Shown here piece after piece: positions 33,701 through 49,752 of a DNA stretch of 64,000 bases (its first letter is position 1; the number at the start of each line of letters is the position of its first letter). This DNA comes from Podarcis gaigeae (taxonomy: Eukaryota). Location: NCBI GenBank assembly GCA_964106915.2, contig OZ066918.1. One strand, 5' to 3'. Below the pieces are notes generated by a model. The model worked only from the letters and a program-made list of their open reading frames with translations. It made no database searches and was not told the origin of the DNA. The position numbers and the translations under genes were made by a program.

Positions 33701-36443
33701 TTCTGACGCCAACAACAGGCCTGATGTACGTGGGAACGCCACGATGCTAAGTTCACGCGACTGTGTGCACCAGTTGTAGCGTGCATCTATCTGACCTGTA
33801 ATACCCAGTCATCTCATTGGACTCATCCTTTGAGCACATTACATGAAATCCAGCCTAGGCTTGCCTCCCAAATTCTTATGTGTGTGTGCTTAGCGGTCAG
33901 TCCCACTTAGAAAGTTAAGCGTTAAGGTTTCAAATCTCTCTATTCTCATCGACATAATGGAATACTCTGGCTCTCAGAGTGCCTAGTCAGCATAGACGAC
34001 ACTGCCCCTCGTTTCCATTTGGTGTAGCTAGCTACTGGATGTGAATATACCGGGCCTGAAAATGTATAAAACACAACCCACCGGAGGAGCCTCTTGTCCA
34101 AGCCCCATTGAATTGTATGGGAAGCAGGCAAGACGAGGAGAGGGTACTCCTTCACTCCGTAGTGACACGACCATGGCCTGTGACCCGTCAACCCCTGGTA
34201 GATTTCAAGAGTTGTTTCGAACAAAGATTTCAGGAGAGCAATTCATGGAAGCTATGTTGTATGCCTGCAAACGAACATGGCATTAATTTCTCTGGATCTC
34301 CACGTAACACACTATACATACATCGTTTCTTCCAACAGCGCAGGGAACATTTCGCACAAAGTCAACTTAAATCGTGGCTCGCAACCTCTAACCCCAAAGT
34401 GTCCATTGGGTTCCTCCTGGCAAAACTTTCATTTCTGAAACATTCCTGGTCCTTTACTCGGAAAGCGGAAATGTCTTTCCAGGAACTGGACCAAGACCCG
34501 AGGGCCAGCTTCCGCCTGACATTCCCTGACACTACCTTCGAATCTAACCGTCTCAACGCGAGAAGCCTGGCGGCGAGGGCGGATCATCACCAATCCCCGG
34601 GTCATATACTTCTAGAGAGAAGCGCGGGCCATTCGTTTTTATGGGCATTCAATTAAAGGAGGTTGCAAAGACCCCGAAGGTCCTTTCTTCTTCTGCCTGC
34701 CTCCCGCCCCCAAGCCCCTCTCCCTTGTATAGTGTGCCTGGGCGGAAACGGGGCTCGGCCGTCCTGATTCATATTTCTAATCTTCATTTCCTAAAGATAC
34801 AAATGGCCTTTTGTGAAATGAATGGTCTTTAATTAATGCGTCCGCACAATGCAGGGGCTTGCATGGGGATCGATGCTAGAAAGCAACAGGGGAGGAAGCC
34901 ATCCGAAATGGATTGTCAGCATTAAAGGAAGAAAAAGGCAGCAGCGTCTATAGAAAGAGCAGGGAAGCCTGCCCACACGTCTCTCCCCATGTTGTCCGAG
35001 GGAACCTTCCATGTCTTGCTGACTACAGCCGAGTGTAATGATGATTACAGGGCTTCTGTCTGCGATTAGGGGCCATATAACTCTTGGCTTTAATAGTCAC
35101 CGACTCTCCAGCGTTGGGTTGGGGTTAGGGGGCGTTGTTTTGTTTTTTGTCGTCCTGTTTCCTACCCGCCAACCTTGCCGTCTGTAGAACAACCCACATT
35201 CCCCTCACTTCCTTGATCTCCTTTCCCACGTTCCACTAACCTGGTCTTCCTCTACCCCACCTTGGTCATATAGTTCGGCTTCTCTGTAGATGCACAGTAA
35301 CGGGCCGGTTGTGAAGAATGCAAGCAAGGAATGTGAGGAACACAACTAAGGTGGGATAGAAGCTAGAGAGGAGCACAGGGGGACTTGCTTCCGAACACGC
35401 ATAGGACTGGGCAGTCAACCAATCGCCCTATCCCAGCTTTACTCAGATCTAAGCACCGTTTATATAAGCACACCTTCCTTCCCAGCAAAAAGGAAGTGCT
35501 ACAGACGCTAGCCATCACGCACGTTTACTTGGGTGTGAGTCTCGATGATTTTAGTGACCTGTCCTCCTTTAGTGCAATGACAGCCCGATCCTATATATAG
35601 CTTTCTTGCTGCAACTGATTTCGACGGGACTTATTGTCGAGTGAGCGCGCATAGGATTCCGCTTCTGCACTGATAATATTTCCAAGCAGGAGAAAGGCAA
35701 ATCAACGACTTGCACAATGCGCATGTGCAGCAAAACGCAGTAGTAGGCATAGACAGCTAGCAGCGTTCGATAGATAGATAGATATATACAGTTGTGGGAA
35801 GGCGGAGAAATTTGAGGGGACTCATTATGGACTATTCACATTGAAAAAGGGATTGATTACTATCTGCCAGTGAACTAACTTCTTAAAAACAAGACAGTCC
35901 CACCCCCGCAGTTCTGGAAATATTAAAAAAAAAAAACACTAGTGTAGTAGAAAGCAGATATTATTTTCCTGCGCCAAACCATTTCTTGGGCACCATAGCT
36001 TTCCAACCCTAACTTGAGAGAATCGTTTATCATTTTCAAGGGGCATTGTTGAAACCACAACGGATACTTGATTTTCAAAGAATCAACTGGAAAGGGGGGG
36101 GGGAGAGAGAGAGAGAGAGAGAGAAAAGAGACAAGTTTTATATTTCTCACGGAGGGCTTTATTTTAAAAGTACAAATTATTTCTCCATAAGATTGAGTTT
36201 TCAGATAGCAATGATGTTTTCATTCAATATTCTTTTTTTTATTTATTTAAAAATCCATAACATGTCCATAATATTCCAACAACAATAATTGCCATTACAT
36301 CGCATTAGAAACCGACCCAAATTATACATGGTTGCTGCGTAGAATTGATTTTTCGTTTTGCTGTTTAGTGTACAAGTGATAGGAGGGGATTGTTAAAAAA
36401 AACACCTTTCGGAAATAGCACGGCAGGGCGAAAAATAAAACAT

Positions 36444-36449
36444 TTTAAT
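36444..36449 (-). terminator. Candidate distal polyadenylation signal ATTAAA
   Basis: Preceded on the minus strand by TGTA-rich UTR-end-like sequence (tttgtacaaattctgtgtagtgttattgtatc). An alternative AATAAA lies near 36163-36158. Confidence 0.4.
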
Positions 36450-36802
36450 TCATCTTTATAAAAAGAAGCACCGAAGCTTCGTAAATATTTAAAGATACAA
36501 TAACACTACACAGAATTTGTACAAATATCCTTTTCAAATAAAGAAACATTAAACCCCTGGGGGGAAACTGCACCTATTGGTAGATTGGAAACTGAATTTG
36601 GATTATAATCTTCCTTGTAAACGACACATGATTTTGAAATCAGTTTTTTTAAAAAATGAGATACCCTTATATACTGAAGTTCCTGTATTCAATGGTGAGG
36701 AATCATCCATTGTGTGTTTTCTTACTCAATCGTCCTAGAAGATGTAACCTGAAATTTGGAAAGTTCCTAGGAGAACCTCTCCCCCACCCCTTTTTTTAAA
36801 AC

Positions 36803-36955
36803 CAATACCATCTATGCAGAAGTAAGTGACACTGAGTTCAATGGGGTTTACATTTACTCCCGGGTAAATGTGTATCTGATTGCAGCCTTACAGCTCAATC
36901 CTCGTTTACCCGCAAGTCCCACTGTTTTCAATGGGGCTTACTCCTATGAAAGCTT
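36803..36955. mobile_element. Two tandem palindromic MITE-like copies inside the inferred ZIC4 distal 3' UTR
   Basis: AGAAGTAAGTGACACTGAGTTCAATGGGG...TTACTCCCGGGTAA...GATTGCAGCC, then CAGCTCAATCCT...AAGTCCCACTGTTTTCAATGGGGCTTACTCC. Confidence 0.55.
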
Positions 36956-39900
36956 CCTTACTCCGCTATCTTTTCCCACACCCCCTTTTAAGAATGATAC
37001 CAACGCCACGATTTTTCTCTCCCCCCCCCCCCCACTCCGTTTTGCTAAAGTCTCAACTTTTGGAGATCTCAAAAACTTTCTCACTATTTTGTGACATTTT
37101 TGTTGGCCTAATAAAAGTATTGCCCTAATACTATGGTGTGGGTAGGTGGGAGTTGCGTTGTGTTTCTTCTTCTGTCTATATTTTTCATTCTGATTAAGGC
37201 AAGTGCCATTTAAGCCTCAATCCCGAATAAATGCCTAAATTTAAGATGAATCTCATTTATTTCAAAGAAGCTTATTACTTCAGAAATTGTTTAGGACCAC
37301 AGAGTCCCGCTGGAAACATTTCAAAACTAAACACGACACATAGAAGTCATTATTATTTATTTCACTAGGACTTATTTCACATATGGATTGGAACTGATGA
37401 TGTACAATTGGTTTAAACGACAAATCCTTCTGCTAACTGAGGTATGGACAGGGTGTCTGCGAATTACACTTCCTAAAACGGCCTCCATAATGCAAGGCCC
37501 AGTATCTTCCAATAAACAGGCACCAGTTAAACCACTCTTCTTTCCTCAGCCTCTGAGCCAACAAAAACTTACTGGGATCGCTGCCAATAGTTTACACTCG
37601 GCACTTGGCTGCGACAAAAGAGGGCCCAACAACGATGCTACCATTTCATGGGGACCCAAAACTACCAGTGTGGCAGAAATGCTAAACTGGTGAGCAGTGT
37701 ATTCTCCAAGCCACTATCTCATTCCCAAAGACATCTATGGACTCTTGAGTTTGGTGTTGTTGTTTTTTCCTCCCAGTTGAGAGTACCAAGTTGCGGAGTG
37801 AGTGGGATGCTGTTACTTTTCTTTCCACTCGCTGACAATAAAACATTGAGACATATGGAAGTCATCGCTTTGAAGGCGTAACCATTTTAGTGCACTGCAG
37901 TAGAGAAACGGGCTTTTTAATAGGTAGTCTCAGCATTAACACGAGCCGAGCCTGCAATAAAGGCATGTACGAGCTGTTGCATTCTTTATGCTGGGATAAT
38001 GGGAGAGTAGCGAGGTTCAGCAGCTACAGACTTGGTGTTCATGGATGGCGTTCGTAGGAAGTTGGGTTTTGTGCAAAGAACAAAGGCTTGGGCAGAATTC
38101 AAGCAAATGAGTTCGGAATAGAAAATCCAGTCGGCCAGTTCCTCTGGGGCTGAGAAGTTCTGAAAGCAGAAGGGATCCTCTCTCGCTCTCGTTCTCCACC
38201 CCCCTCTCGTTTCCCCCTCCCCCCTCCCCACCCTAGAGCTACACGCCCCCCTCCACCTACAGCGAGACAGACATAGGCAGACAGACGTAGGTAGATGTAT
38301 GTATCTGATTGTATACTGGGACATTTTCTGTCTCCATCCCAACGTTATCTTTTAAGAAGTTTGGTTCCATCTCTTTAGAAACGGTCCCAGCTAACGGGGC
38401 AGAGGGAGTTTGACAGAGGGGAGAACAAATCGCTGACAAAGAACCTTTTTACGTTTCATCAGCGTTGTTAGGGCGACGAGGAGGAATTTCTCAGATAATA
38501 ACTCCCACTTCAAAGATTTTTCAGCTCAATAGAAATTGGACCATCCTTTTTTATTCAGCCACAAGGGCTAGCACTAAAGACGACTCGACTGTTTGAATTT
38601 TTTTTTTGTTCGGCGTGTTTATTTTTCCCCTATTCACTGGGGTACTTGGATAAAATAAACAAGAAGACAATTACTGGAACATGGACTTCTAACTTTCCCG
38701 GACCATGGCCCATCGCCCGTGGCCTCAGACTTGGGAGTGTCAAGTTCTGTAGCCCTGGAAGGCATTAAACCCTAATTTCTTGGGACATGGTTTTTGCCAC
38801 ACACCTAGGATCTAGTCCTTGTTTGTTTCCGTGAAAAAGTCAAGAAATTCAGAAGATTCCTCAGTCTTTGTTCTGGAAATGGCATCCCTTTCTACTTCAG
38901 TCTCTATCTTCAGCAGTGTGTGTGTGTGTGTGGATGTGACTGTGTGTGTTTACAAAGAAGGAAATAGTGTCAAAAAGCAACTTAAAGCCGCAGCATTCAG
39001 CAAGGAGCTAGACCCTAAGGAGGATGGAGTCAGACACAGAAATATCGAAATGTTACTTGCAAAGCAAAGATCAACAAATGTATACATTTATGAATAAGAA
39101 TATTGACACCAACCACTGTTTGGACCGTACTTGTAGGATGTCTTAGGGTTATGGCTTGGGGCGTGGAGACAAGAGTTTTGTGAGCTCGCTAGTAAACAAA
39201 ACTGGTCCACTACTGACTTGCTCCTGAGCAGTCCTATTCTAGCCAGGTGGGCTGCTTTGAACAAAAGTGGGTCCTCTGCTATTGAGTCCCAGCCCCAGAT
39301 TTCCATGGGTGCAAAATTTCACTCGACACTGGTAGCTCTTATAAAACCGCCTCGCCCCCTCCCCGCCCGCCCCTACTTCGGTTTCTTAATCGCAGAGATC
39401 CAAGATGCTGCAACAAAAGCCCTCCTTAGAGAGCAAGCCAGCAAAGCAAGCCAAAGGGGACGAGATGGAGGAAGTCCATCTCTGAGGAAGAGCAGATTGA
39501 ATGTATTAAGCTAGCATGAAACCAAAGGTCAGTGCAAATGTATCTTAATAGACTGTCTCGAATGGAGTGTGCCTCCTTTTCAAGGGCGCTTGCTATTGCT
39601 CCGCTCATTACCATAGCGATCCTAACGTGGCATGTTGATGCACCATAAAGCTCACACTTTCAACCCCCACCCTCCAACCAAAAAAAATAAAAAATAAAAA
39701 TCAGAGCCTTTGAACAAGGCCGGGCTTGATTAGACCTTTCTCCTTTTCTTTTCCCTCCTTCAAACCCATTTCCTCGCCTTTAGAAAAGTCGCCATCAAAT
39801 CCCAAAGGCCGTCTCTGATCATGGCCCAGAAGGAGAGAAACAAAAGTGAACTGGCGGACGGCGATTCAGGCGGCCCCCTTTTTCTTCCTGACATTCTTAT

Positions 39901-40014
39901 CCATTCTGATTATGGGCTGGAACAAGGACCCCCATTCGCGTGGGGGTTTTCTTGCCCCGGAAATTCGGAGGGAAAATATGCATACTCCACGTCCATCACG
40001 AACACAACATACAA

Positions 40015-40015
<1 letters not shown>

Positions 40016-40062
<47 letters not shown>
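40016..40062. repeat. (GT)n microsatellite in the inferred distal 3' UTR
   Basis: Seen directly. Confidence 0.95.
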
Positions 40063-40064
<2 letters not shown>

Positions 40065-41619
40065 TGTGGTTTTAGCACTGTTGGGGTGTTTTCTGTTTTA
40101 TATATATATGCATCGGTGAGGATGGGAGAAAGAAATTGAGCCGCGAGGGGATGGGGAGAAAGAGAGAGAATCTGTTAGACCTAAATATTATGTCCTTCAT
40201 GAAAAGACTGGACGGGCTCCAGACTTCGCTTTTCACTCTTTTTAAGTATGACTTGCCTATTGCTATAGAAATCTTAACTCACCATGAAGATTCACCGTTG
40301 CGAAGAAATACTTTCATTGTGAGAGACTGCTTTGATGTCTAAGGCATAAGATGCGGGGCTTTTCAGCTGCCTCTGTCTAGATTACCTTGAGAGCAACGGG
40401 ATAGACATCTGTAACAAGCAAATGAAAAATTAAAGGTGATTAGCCTACACATCCAAAAACCGCTTCTGCAAAGAAAGAAATCAAGAAGAAAAGGGAGAGG
40501 GAGGAGGAGGGCCGAGGGACGGAGCCGGGAGGGGGCAACCCAACTCCAGACAAGGTGGAAGCATCTTTCGCAGATGGCCTCCATCCATCCATCTCTACCT
40601 TCTCATTTCCACGACGGCTCCACTAGATCAGAGGGAGTAAACGAGCAGCAGCAGTAATGGCAACCAATATCTTGTTTTAATTTTTATCCTGAGAATCGGG
40701 ACGGGATGGTTATTTCTTTGTTTGCTATGTTTCGTCCATTTAACTCGGCGATCTATTAAGGATCTCTCGCTGAGGCAGTGAGAAGGAATGGGGAACCAAG
40801 TCATGCACATTGTTCAAAAGGTAAATAGGTGATAGATGGATTGATACCTAGATAAGTAGACTTCTATTATTATTATTTTTAATTTTTAATGTGAATGCCT
40901 GAATGTCACCAACCGCCCCATCTTCAGACGTAAGTGCCACGGTGTTCACACTTCACTGGGATGTCCCAGTGAACTCAGTGGAACTTACTTCCGAGTAAAT
41001 AAGCATATGGTCCTGCTGCACAAGGAAGATAGAGAGAAAGAAAGAGTTCAGAAATGTGGGAATGTTAAGGAAGATAGGGGAGAATATATTGTTTTGATAT
41101 TATCTCTCCTCACTCACGCTCAGAGCACATTCCCTTTGGAGCCACATCCCCCTGTGTGTCCATTCTAGGCAACAGGAAAATGTTGTACTTGACTGCTCTA
41201 ATAATAATACATCCCACAAGAAATAAGAAATTTCTGTTGGTGGTGGTGTGTGCATGGCTAACCCAAAGACTGGGCTGGACGTTTTGCTTAACACTCCTTC
41301 ACTGAATTGAAGGAAATGGCTTTGTAGAAGTGCTTTGGCTAATATCTTAGAGCGCCTACAGACAAATGGGCCTTTCCATAGTTTAAAAATGGATTAGAAT
41401 GAACCACGCCCCCTCCCTCATTCCTAAATATACTGCCTGTAAATAAGTTTCATTGAAGTATATGGGTCTTACTACAAAGTGATGCGTTTAGGGGCTACAA
41501 TCAGTAAATGAAATCCATACAGTAATATTTCCACAAACACCCCCCCCTGGGGAATTCGCTAGAGACAAGGACTCACATAGGGCTGATAAGAATCATATAG
41601 TTTTAGAGACCCCGACATA

Positions 41620-42840
41620 TGTTCATGATTTTAAAACCATTTTATTTTTACCTTTACAAAAAAAAATAATTAATATTTCGAATGGTTATTTTACATAACT
41701 ACTGTTGTGCGTTTGAAAACCAGACCACCACTGGGTTTACACCACGGGTTCAGAAAAAATCGACACGTCGTGAATCCTTTTGGACAATCCAAGCAACTCA
41801 ACACAATTACGTCACTCATAACAACTCCCCCCCCCCCTTCTCTCCAATTAACATGGATCTCACCTTCCATCCACTAAGGAATCACAAGAACTCACAATTC
41901 AACAGAAATAATGCGAGGGAGGGGGAAGAGAAAAGGAGAATATGTTTATGCATTTAAATCCATTACTAGTGTAAATTAAAATGTACCATAAATCATTAAG
42001 CCACCCTTGGGTCTGTTTTATTAGTGACAAGTGGGAAGAATATACTGGTGAAAAAGGGGCAGTAAAGAGATTCCCCCCCCCCGAAAAAAACGTCAACTGA
42101 GCTGGTAAATTAATCAAAGTATTTAATTGATCGATTTGTTGTACAGTTCGGTAACAAATAATATATTTATAGATACTGATGTTCCTTTTTGGGAGAAAAA
42201 AAGCACACGCACACAGCCCCCCACCCCCGCCAAGAAACCCAATTAGAATCCAGACACTGGGCTAATAAAACTGTCCAAGAAAAAAACACCATCACAAGAT
42301 ACCAGCACCGACGATCGCAGCTGTACAGCTAGAAATCCGTATTAAAACACTTTGGTTCATTGATACAAAAGGATGTTTCCATTCAAATCGAGGCCATTGT
42401 AAACGTATGGGAAGGAGGTGGTCCGCGGAGTCCGCCCTGGGAGGGTGTAAAATAAAAAGAAGAGCTCATGGAAAGAGGTGCGGGGAGGGGGAGGTGGCGG
42501 GAGGGGGGGTCTGCTGTCCTCTGTGCCATAATAAATACAAAACGGGGGTGGGGGAGAGAGGGAGGAGGTTTGTCCACCCCCCCCCCCCATGTATCTTCTC
42601 TCCGATAGCCTGTGCAGCATTTCTGATCGAAGGTGACTGACTGGGGGAAGAGGGAAGAGGCTGGGGAGGGGGGAGGGGGAGGGGGCTTGCTCCCCAGGCC
42701 TGGGATCGATTTCCGCCCCTCCCCCAAGAACCGGGCCTTGCCGACCCGCCGTTCGTCCAGTGTGAGCCAAGGATCCACAGCACCCCGAAAAGAACAATGC
42801 AGTCTCGCCGCCGCCGGCGGGCCATCCTACCGTATTGACT
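41620..42840 (-). other. ZIC4: ZIC4 proximal 3' UTR, used when the last coding exon is read through to TAA
   Basis: Follows the stop at 42841. It has U-rich/AU-rich UTR composition and minus-strand AATAAA at 42022-42017 and 41646-41641. Confidence 0.6.
41641..41646 (-). terminator. Candidate proximal polyadenylation signal AATAAA
   Basis: Plus-strand TTTATT at the end of an AU-rich stretch, with GU-containing sequence downstream on the minus strand. Confidence 0.5.
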
Positions 42841-43298
42841 TTAATAAGTGGGCCGGGGCTCGCAGTTCGTGTAAGCGGCCTCTCCCGGGTGAGGTGACGG
42901 AGAGTTACTGGGTGGAGTCGGGATGCCGCTGGCCCCTGAGCTCTGACACACGTACCATTCGCTCAGGTTGGCTGCCGCCTGGGTGGAGGAAGCCGCTGCG
43001 GGAGGCGGTGGCGGCGGCGGTGGCGGCGGCGGCTGAGGGGGCTCCCGGCCGCAGTCCGACGACGGCGACACCAGCGACGGGGTGGACGACTCGTAGCCCG
43101 AGCTGGGAGGTGGGGACTTGCAGTGGACTTTCATGTGCTTCCGCAAAGAGCTGGGGTGCGTGTAGGACTTGTCACAGCCTCGCACTTTGCAGTTGTAGGG
43201 CTTGTCGCTGGTGTGCACGTGGGAATGCTTCTTCCTGTCGCTGCTGTTGGCGAAGCGGCGCTCGCAGCCCTCGAACTCGCATTTGAAGGGTTTCTCGC
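42841..43298 (-). CDS. ZIC4: ZIC4 second major coding exon: zinc fingers 4-5, Pro/Ala tract, NLSEWYV motif and C-terminal extension to TAA
   Basis: The acceptor ttttccttgcag|GC GAG AAA CCC restores G-E-K-P in phase with the upstream exon. [49 protein letters not shown] is ZIC4-type. Stop TAA is at 42843-42841. The joined CDS is 1192+458=1650 nt (549 aa). Confidence 0.97.
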
Positions 43299-48560: not shown

Positions 48561-49752
48561 CTGTGTGCGTCCTTTTGTGGATCTTGAGATTTTCCGAGCG
48601 AGCGAAGACTTTCCCGCATCCCGGGAAAGGACAAGGGAAAGGTTTCTCCCCCGTGTGGACTCGGATGTGGTTGACCAGTTTGTATTTGGCCTTGAAAGGC
48701 TTCCCTTCCCTGGGACACTCTTCCCAGAAGCAAATGTGGTTGGACTGCTCCGGCCCTCCAACGTGCTCCACGGTGACGTGAGTCACCAGCTCGTGCATGG
48801 TGCTGAAAGTTTTCGAGCATAATTTTTTGGGAGTCTGGTCCAGTTCGATCCACTTGCAGATGAGCTCCTGCTTGATGGGCTGCCTCATGTAGCGGAAGAA
48901 AGCCCCAGGGCCGTGGTGTGGAGCTAAATTCACGTTCAGGTTCATGCCACCGTAGCCGTGGAAGGAGGAAGCAGCAAAAGGATCTGTCCTGGAGACTGGT
49001 ACTGGCGTGAAAGGTTCAGACCTGGCATACATTTCTCCAGGTAGCCCCAGCCTTATCTGTCCGTTTAGATGGCCACCTGGAGCTGCATGGGGAGGTTGCT
49101 CATGGTGGAGTCCAGTAAAAAGCGAGGGAGTTCCGGCTTCTGAGTGGTGGTGGTGGAGGTGGTGGAGGTGGTGATGGTGAGCATGGTGTCCGGGGTAGCT
49201 ACCTGTTGTTGAGACAAACATTCCATGGTGAGAACCTGTAGCAGCAGAGTGTTGATAAGGGAGCCCTGGCATGACTGGGGCTGTCAGATCTCTGCGCAGG
49301 AAGAATTCCCTACCTGATGAAAGAGCATGACTTGGGTGAGGGACTGCGTAAGGGACTGTTGTTGACTGCGCTGGGCCAAATGCTCCTGCTGGACTGGGTA
49401 CCACCTCGGCTTGGCCTGTCACAGGATGGTGGGGATGAGGCTGAGGGGCAGGGCTGAGCTTAAGGGCCGCTGAGTGATGAGGAGGATGAGAGTGGTGGCG
49501 GTGGTGATGATGATGATGGAGAGGATGGTGGTGGTGCCCCATGTGTTCTGACCGGAATGGACTCAGCCCGAGGCGGCTTTCTGCAGCGTACTCCCCAGGG
49601 TGCGTGGGAACCATGGAGTGGGGATGCCCGGCGAAGCCTGTCATGCTCTGAGGGGAGTGGTGATGGTGGCGGTGATGACGATGACGAGGAGCCCCTGCCA
49701 AGCCTAGTAATTTCAGCGCCGTGTTCCGTTTGGAGAGTGAAGCAGAGTCCAT
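48561..49752 (-). CDS. ZIC4: ZIC4 major coding exon: long His-rich N-terminus, ZOC-like motif, ZF-NC and C2H2 zinc fingers 1-3
   Basis: The 398-codon ORF starts at CCA GTA ATG G (strong Kozak). It contains [17 protein letters not shown] (ZF-NC) and Zic fingers 1-3. The ZIC4-type N-terminus is [10 protein letters not shown]...PQSMTGF and RLGLPGEMY. The exon ends at ACA G|gttagt (phase-1 donor 48560-48559). Confidence 0.97.
49203..49313 (-). other. ZIC4: In-frame 111-nt exitron candidate inside the ZIC4 major exon
   Basis: Donor TCAG|GTAGGG (GT at 49313-49312) and acceptor tgtttgtctcaacaacag|GTAGC (AG at 49204-49203). The length is exactly 37 codons and it encodes GREFFLRRD...VSTT. Confidence 0.6.

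Follow-up and report, generated by a model that had tools for sequence, protein, structure and literature searches.

Introduction

A composite terminal exon contains an internal 5' splice site (donor), in competition with a poly(A) site located in the intron. The type case with intronic polyadenylation is the secreted/membrane switch of the IgM heavy chain, in which the 5' splice site of a coding exon and a poly(A) site in the following intron compete, and the C-terminus and the untranslated region (UTR) change together. A stop codon placed on the last exon-exon junction is no target of junction-dependent decay.

Among the Zic proteins, alternative C-termini have been described for ZIC3. The products ZIC3_SP3 (p.W465*) and SP4 (p.W465Cfs*26) use a donor in the tryptophan codon of the NEWYV motif; this donor is silent under normal conditions and becomes active through a disease variant, with the loss of 3 aa (PMC11470249). 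The ZIC3 isoform 2 (exons 1, 2, and 4) drops NEWYV with an alternative last exon as well, by skipping of exon 3 from the exon 2 donor (PMC11470249). The NEWYV motif is described as conserved in all Zic members but ZIC4 (PMC4564895). Many ZIC4 isoforms are reported from human cerebellum, without detail (PMC10807796), and the accessible part of PMC13328068 makes no mention of the EWYV motif. In the open-access literature, subscription papers being outside our reach, we found no paper stating that the ZIC4 motif is encoded and spliced out.

Here we describe the Zic4 gene of the lizard Podarcis gaigeae, located in a stretch of 64,000 nucleotides of contig OZ066918.1 (assembly GCA_964106915.2), which is called the window and to which all coordinates refer. 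As in the IgM-type switch, a donor in a coding exon is followed by a candidate poly(A) site and by a distal exon; unlike there, the downstream exon adds only one coding base, and it is the removed motif itself whose codons impose the donor. The Zic4 donor lies in the same phase of the tryptophan codon as that of ZIC3_SP3 and SP4 (c.1224+170 is the second base of codon 465, as we computed from the numbering in PMC11470249), and in ZIC3_SP3, as in Zic4 isoform B, the stop codon spans the junction (PMC11470249). In contrast to the woken ZIC3 donor, the Zic4 event is normal and conserved, and removes 38 aa. The ZIC3 isoform 2 differs from Zic4 in that its last finger is altered and the in-motif donor stays unused (PMC11470249).

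Materials and methods

Splice sites were judged by consensus matches and pyrimidine counts. Contigs and reads were placed on positions 40600-43012, an interval with both distal acceptors outside, and came from four of 24 runs: X1 (contigs, organism A, only guessed to be RNA), X5 (organism B), and X21 and X23 (raw reads).

Results

The minus-strand gene with the coding exons 49752-48561 and 43298-42841 is, by its sequence, Zic4 (Zic subclass B). The main first coding exon (48561-49752, minus strand) extends from the N-terminus to zinc finger 3, and was placed by its open reading frame, squamate Zic4 matches, and tblastn of Podarcis models; its best matches are squamate Zic4 proteins (83-89%), and the domain is that of a five-finger Zic. 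The shared part of the composite exon (42956-43298, minus strand) contains zinc fingers 4-5 and a Pro-rich linker, and ends with AANLSE and the letters TG. The unspliced product of 549 aa is identical to Podarcis raffonei Zic4 X2 at 547 of 550 positions. A Zic reading frame on the opposite strand, just past the window edge (locus L009), is arranged head-to-head with Zic4, and we take this neighbor to be Zic1 on the basis of synteny. Upstream alternative Zic4 coding exons at 57243-57196 (MRKRKRLY-type start) and 60994-60959 (MKDDRL-type), both on the minus strand, match squamate models, and thus the N-terminus of Zic4 is variable too.

The 5' splice site ATG/GTACGT (42950-42958, minus strand, with GT at 42955-42954; the slash marks the splice point) is found within the E-W-Y-V codons. 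GAA TG ends at 42956 and GTACGT follows, which places the donor 42955 in the tryptophan codon, just where the first-pass annotation, made from the window's letters, had it. The W-Y-V codons invariably spell TG/GTAYGT, with four possible 9-mers, and the in-motif donor is carried by all five Zic paralogues of the genome, the 9-mer of Zic1 being the same as that of Zic4. By synteny, the loci L009, L010, L011, and L012 are presumably Zic1, Zic3, Zic2, and Zic5, respectively. Since the W-Y-V codons force the donor in all five paralogues, its mere presence proves nothing, and the donor was rejected as evidence in itself, selection for splicing being unneeded to explain a codon-forced site. Between positions 43298 and 36300, 14 of 378 GT sites fit MAG/GTRAGT at at least 7/9, that is, as well as the donor or better. 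That donor 42955 is used follows from one contig joint (in a related species and a run guessed to be RNA) and from database models. The splice had been described as removing a C-terminal EWYV motif; WYV is indeed lost, but E is kept, and the motif is not at the very end of Zic4, where 35 aa follow it, whereas in Zic1/2/3 it is terminal. A terminal position of the Zic4 motif was rejected for these 35 residues.

When the donor is left unspliced, the reading frame continues for 38 aa, from WYVCQ to RPTY and a TAA stop (42841-42957, minus strand), giving isoform A (549 aa). This tail, short and of low complexity, is conserved from sharks to lizards in the protein comparison, and read-through therefore looks ancestral. 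The contig 42668-42984 and about 3 raw reads (run X21) traverse the donor unspliced, and in run X1 an unspliced contig across the donor has a depth of 10.4. The proximal 3' UTR (41621-42840, minus strand), with AATAAA at 41646 and 42022, measures 1220 nt in isoform A and 671 nt in isoform C. A contig of run X1 ends at 41621, 20 nt past the AATAAA at 41646, and its depth is 17.8 against ~3 beyond, although contigs are no proof of an RNA end or level. The contig of run X5 continues to 41549, with neither the joint described below nor the 41621 end. Further inside the distal intron, a dispersed-repeat fragment (41055-41220) attracts reads and contigs whose ends are loose on both sides, with a depth of up to 138; all 12 reads of run X23, and most of the 30 of run X21, fall on this repeat (~41055-41220) and not on Zic4 exons.

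For isoform B the donor would be joined to a distal exon. The acceptor AG at 40410-40409 leaves an A at 40408 as the first exon base, which completes TGA, and the joined frame stops at the junction; the computed products are 511 aa spliced and 549 aa unspliced, so both the assembled stop codon and the removal of 38 aa stand as first proposed. The distal intron (40409-42955, minus strand, 2547 nt), the use of which in this lizard is suggested by orthologous models, spans the read-through tail together with the proximal UTR and the poly(A) signal of the latter. The start of the distal last exon (40377-40408, minus strand), with the A completing the stop of isoform B (511 aa), has frames matching the ends of bird and bat models. 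It is followed by a predicted distal 3' UTR (36160-40376, minus strand), for which a signal scan gave the candidates ATTAAA at 36449 and AATAAA at 38623, 38555, 37361, 37261, 36247, 36243, and 36163. With regard to the UTR lengths of ~1.2 and ~4 kb given earlier, the proximal one fits the distance to the contig end (1220 nt to 41621), and the distal one, 3978 nt to 36430, depends on an end which is one of several candidates.

From the window sequence alone, the arrangement of donor and acceptor does not beat chance. A follows 111 of the 404 AG sites (27%), and each of these would also yield TGA. The pyrimidine content before the acceptor is 15/20 for 40408 and 18/20 for the nearby candidate 40465, which also supplies A. 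What lifts the observation above chance is that tetrapod models end at this point and that four bird and bat ends fit the frames of the 40408 exon, the first ~30 nt of which are conserved among lizard, birds, and a bat. Downstream of 40408, the window frames read PVALKVI and a stop from 40400, PLLSR and a stop from 40399, and SRCSQG from 40401. A swan RefSeq model (P0210), with an upstream frameshift, ends QPERM-MSTPLLSR; the shifted frame of the window ends QPERM at 42956, and its PLLSR begins three codons past 40408, hence the junction of the swan model links homologues of both the donor and the acceptor. The wagtail model (P0009) ends MSTPLLSR, as in swan, the plover model (P0183) ends DVYPVALKVI, compared with PVALKVI and a stop in the window, and a bat model (P0112, Rhinolophus) reads LSE-C-CPPRCSQG in the stop frame, compared with SRCSQG. 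As all three frames match bird or bat ends, the exon start was placed at 40408, and from these sequences we infer that acceptor 40408 is used in this lizard.

Several details of these models and of the distal region are of note. The bat model P0112 has Cys at the position of the stop codon and 15 aa added, which may be a real stop loss or a model error. The same donor leads to different tails past LSE in the Lepidochelys (P0192) and Marmota (P0456) models. The bird models P0009 and P0210 use an extra donor in the finger-5 region, truncating or frameshifting the protein ahead of the distal exon. Donor-like sites (7-8/9) are present at 40385, 40295, and 40282 on the minus strand, at distances of 23 to 126 nt from the start of the distal exon; the 40385 site is within the stretch conserved in birds, and onward splicing from the later sites could expose the junction stop to decay. 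In the distal intron there is a candidate 27-nt cassette exon (41015-40989, minus strand) with a strong pyrimidine tract and the donor GAA/GTAAGT at 40988; no contig joint to it was seen in the four runs placed on 40600-43012.

The same donor 42955 leads to a third C-terminus, isoform C, which was overlooked in the first-pass annotation. Its acceptor, AG at 42438-42437, closes an intron of 519 nt and opens a 48-aa tail starting WADS (42292-42436, minus strand; isoform C, 559 aa). With the G supplied by acceptor 42436 the TGG codon is restored, ahead of 47 new residues. This tail recurs in eight database proteins of three Podarcis species, with 47 of 48 residues identical, and tblastn sets the borders at 42955/42435. 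In run X1 the donor is connected to 42436 in a contig of depth 17.8, with the joint at 42435-42955, GT..AG ends, and one side of 30 letters (the bar being 31); this is the sole joint in the RNA-like data placed on 40600-43012. None of the fetched proteins of non-Podarcis taxa has the isoform C tail, and in a search of other taxa with the WADS tail 0 of 6 candidates matched, a search which likewise did not return the known Podarcis proteins. In isoform C, YV and the conserved tail are missing, but the proximal 3' end is retained, with a UTR of 671 nt. Tail loss and UTR swap are hence not one-to-one, and the linkage of C-terminus and UTR, as it was first put, is valid for isoforms A and B, which necessarily differ in UTR, but is broken in its strict form by isoform C; the strict one-to-one link was rejected on this ground.

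Both spliced and unspliced forms exist, since both paths at the donor are found in run X1 and all three forms are modeled in two Podarcis species: the models of P. muralis and P. raffonei have 549 and 548 aa (WYV), 511 and 510 aa (...LSE; X4), and 559 and 558 aa (WADS), respectively. The lengths of the X4 models are as predicted for isoform B, and the human ZIC4 reference and the tetrapod RefSeq ...LSE isoforms have the same end at E. The human protein (NP_115529.2, Swiss-Prot ZIC4_HUMAN, 334 aa) has as its last residue the E that immediately precedes the W of the motif. Compared with human ZIC4 as treated in PMC4564895, in which the motif is absent, the lizard Zic4 encodes the full conserved tail.

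In a first protein search (n=120), 15 proteins end at ...SE, 73 have the motif, and 32 were unclassed (18 without the finger-5 marker and 14 other). Among the cluster members listed (up to 15 for each cluster), and counting gene models of limited independence, many of them predicted and possibly projected from human, 28 of the 119 Zic4 proteins from reptiles, birds, and marsupials end at the junction point, as do 63 of the 123 placental ones, human included (30 of the 123 being unclassed). On the same footing, 1 of 30 frog proteins (Spea), plus one caecilian, ends there, and none of the 79 fish Zic4 proteins listed (0/64 bony-fish, 0/15 shark/ray), an absence which could reflect annotation. 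The comparison suggests that the distal exon and isoform B likely arose in tetrapods. The placental tails range from 10 to 315 aa past WYVCQ; judged from these sequences, the placental read-through tail has drifted and the stop form is the reference. No primate read-through model is present among the 123 placental proteins listed, while the mouse X2 has the read-through form; consequently, a human read-through form can only be presumed from mouse and other mammals. In a control search with Zic5, the motif is found in 118 of 120 proteins, 2 are other, and 0 end at E, with a tail-bearing query that disfavors truncated forms.

Discussion

The isoforms discussed here are already in RefSeq/Swiss-Prot, human ZIC4 included, the class of mechanism is known, and a stop made at the same donor has been published for ZIC3 as aberrant. 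As the isoforms are publicly annotated, the gain is one of interpretation and not of a new element. Our interpretation, which we hold to be probable, is that the composite last coding exon of Zic4, with its donor spelled by W-Y-V and its three annotated C-termini, works as a switch, the choice between the ends removing an activity-damping tail. The donor 42955 and the proximal, intronic poly(A) site would be in competition. If the donor is ignored, the 38 aa from WYV onward would be translated as well, and the RNA would likely end at 41621 (isoform A). If it is joined to 40408, TG and A would stop translation right after E, and the distal UTR would be taken (isoform B, the human reference form); if it is joined to 42436, as in Podarcis, 48 other residues would follow with the proximal end kept (isoform C). 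With no junction present downstream of its stop, isoform B would be expected to evade junction-dependent decay, unless one of the donor-like sites 40385, 40295, or 40282 is used.

By analogy with truncations of ZIC1 and ZIC3, the loss of the tail likely raises the activity or stability of Zic4. ZIC1 without the last 11 aa, including NEWYV, disrupted en-2 in 66% of embryos, compared with 8% for the wild type (PMC4564895), and ZIC1 C-terminal mutants are more stable (PMC11735403). With ZIC3_SP3 (p.W465*) the SV40 reporter activity is up (p=0.0051), and with a frameshifted ZIC3 splice product the reporter activity is down (PMC11470249). The need of C-terminal sequence for ZIC3 transactivation counts against a simple damping view (PMC7403390). 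All these functional data come from ZIC1 and ZIC3, in which the motif is terminal. Human ZIC4, as the 1005-bp coding sequence, gave little activation on a multimerised site (PMC7403390).

The splice may be real and the difference in protein a tolerated by-product, in which case the tetrapod Zic4 would have acquired the downstream exon by drift or for the UTR it brings, and the isoforms would act alike. Codon necessity accounts for the donor in 5 of 5 paralogues, 27% of AG sites would yield TGA by chance, isoform C is seen in Podarcis only, and the placental tails vary from 10 to 315 aa past WYVCQ, all of which suits such an explanation. We nevertheless consider it unlikely, while granting it a real chance: the junction stop has been kept from amphibians to mammals, the read-through tail is still conserved in reptiles, amphibians, and fish, Zic5 has 0 of 120 such ends (with a biased query), and losing the motif alters the activity of ZIC1 and ZIC3.

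Distal splicing could also act mainly by lowering the output of Zic4, the long UTR, or onward splicing from 40385, 40295, or 40282, cutting the stability of the mRNA. The predicted 4-kb UTR and the donor-like sites (7-8/9) near the start of the distal exon (23 to 126 nt), with 40385 in a conserved stretch, would agree with this, but the curated human reference protein is itself tail-less, a last-junction stop is not a target of junction-dependent decay, and onward splicing appears in no model or read, which makes this explanation improbable to us. It is very improbable, finally, that the ...LSE isoform of this lizard uses another acceptor, e.g. 40465, or is rare, with 40408 conserved but little used. 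The pyrimidine tract of 40465 is stronger (18/20 versus 15/20) and A is supplied there too, protein models cannot separate 40465 from 40408, and the sole joint in RNA-like data led to 42436; against this, the codon register of the bird and bat models points to 40408 in three frames, and the reads and contigs covered 40600-43012, so the absence of distal acceptors there means nothing.

The switch removing a damping tail is the preferred interpretation. It may be extended to a bolder one, to which we give tentative and clearly less than even credence. EWYV would be doubly coded, its codons serving at once as a 5' splice site that cannot be avoided, and tetrapod Zic4 would have made the forced donor a regulated switch deleting a damping or destabilising motif. 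On this bold reading ZIC4 would not lack the motif, contrary to the literature; with the spliced form as its reference cDNA, assays of ZIC4 would have been confined to the tail-less protein, and the latent donor would be a hidden disease route in ZIC1, 2, 3, and 5.

When ZIC1 loses the NEWYV motif, the resulting gain of function causes craniosynostosis. One locus giving both a motif-bearing and a motif-less Zic protein offers a natural test of the role of the motif, and the in-motif splice would explain why ZIC4 has been described as the sole family member without it. A warning also lies in the latent donor shared by all Zic genes. If the bolder interpretation is true, the Zic4 switch would be a natural version of the gain-of-function truncations of ZIC1 and ZIC3.
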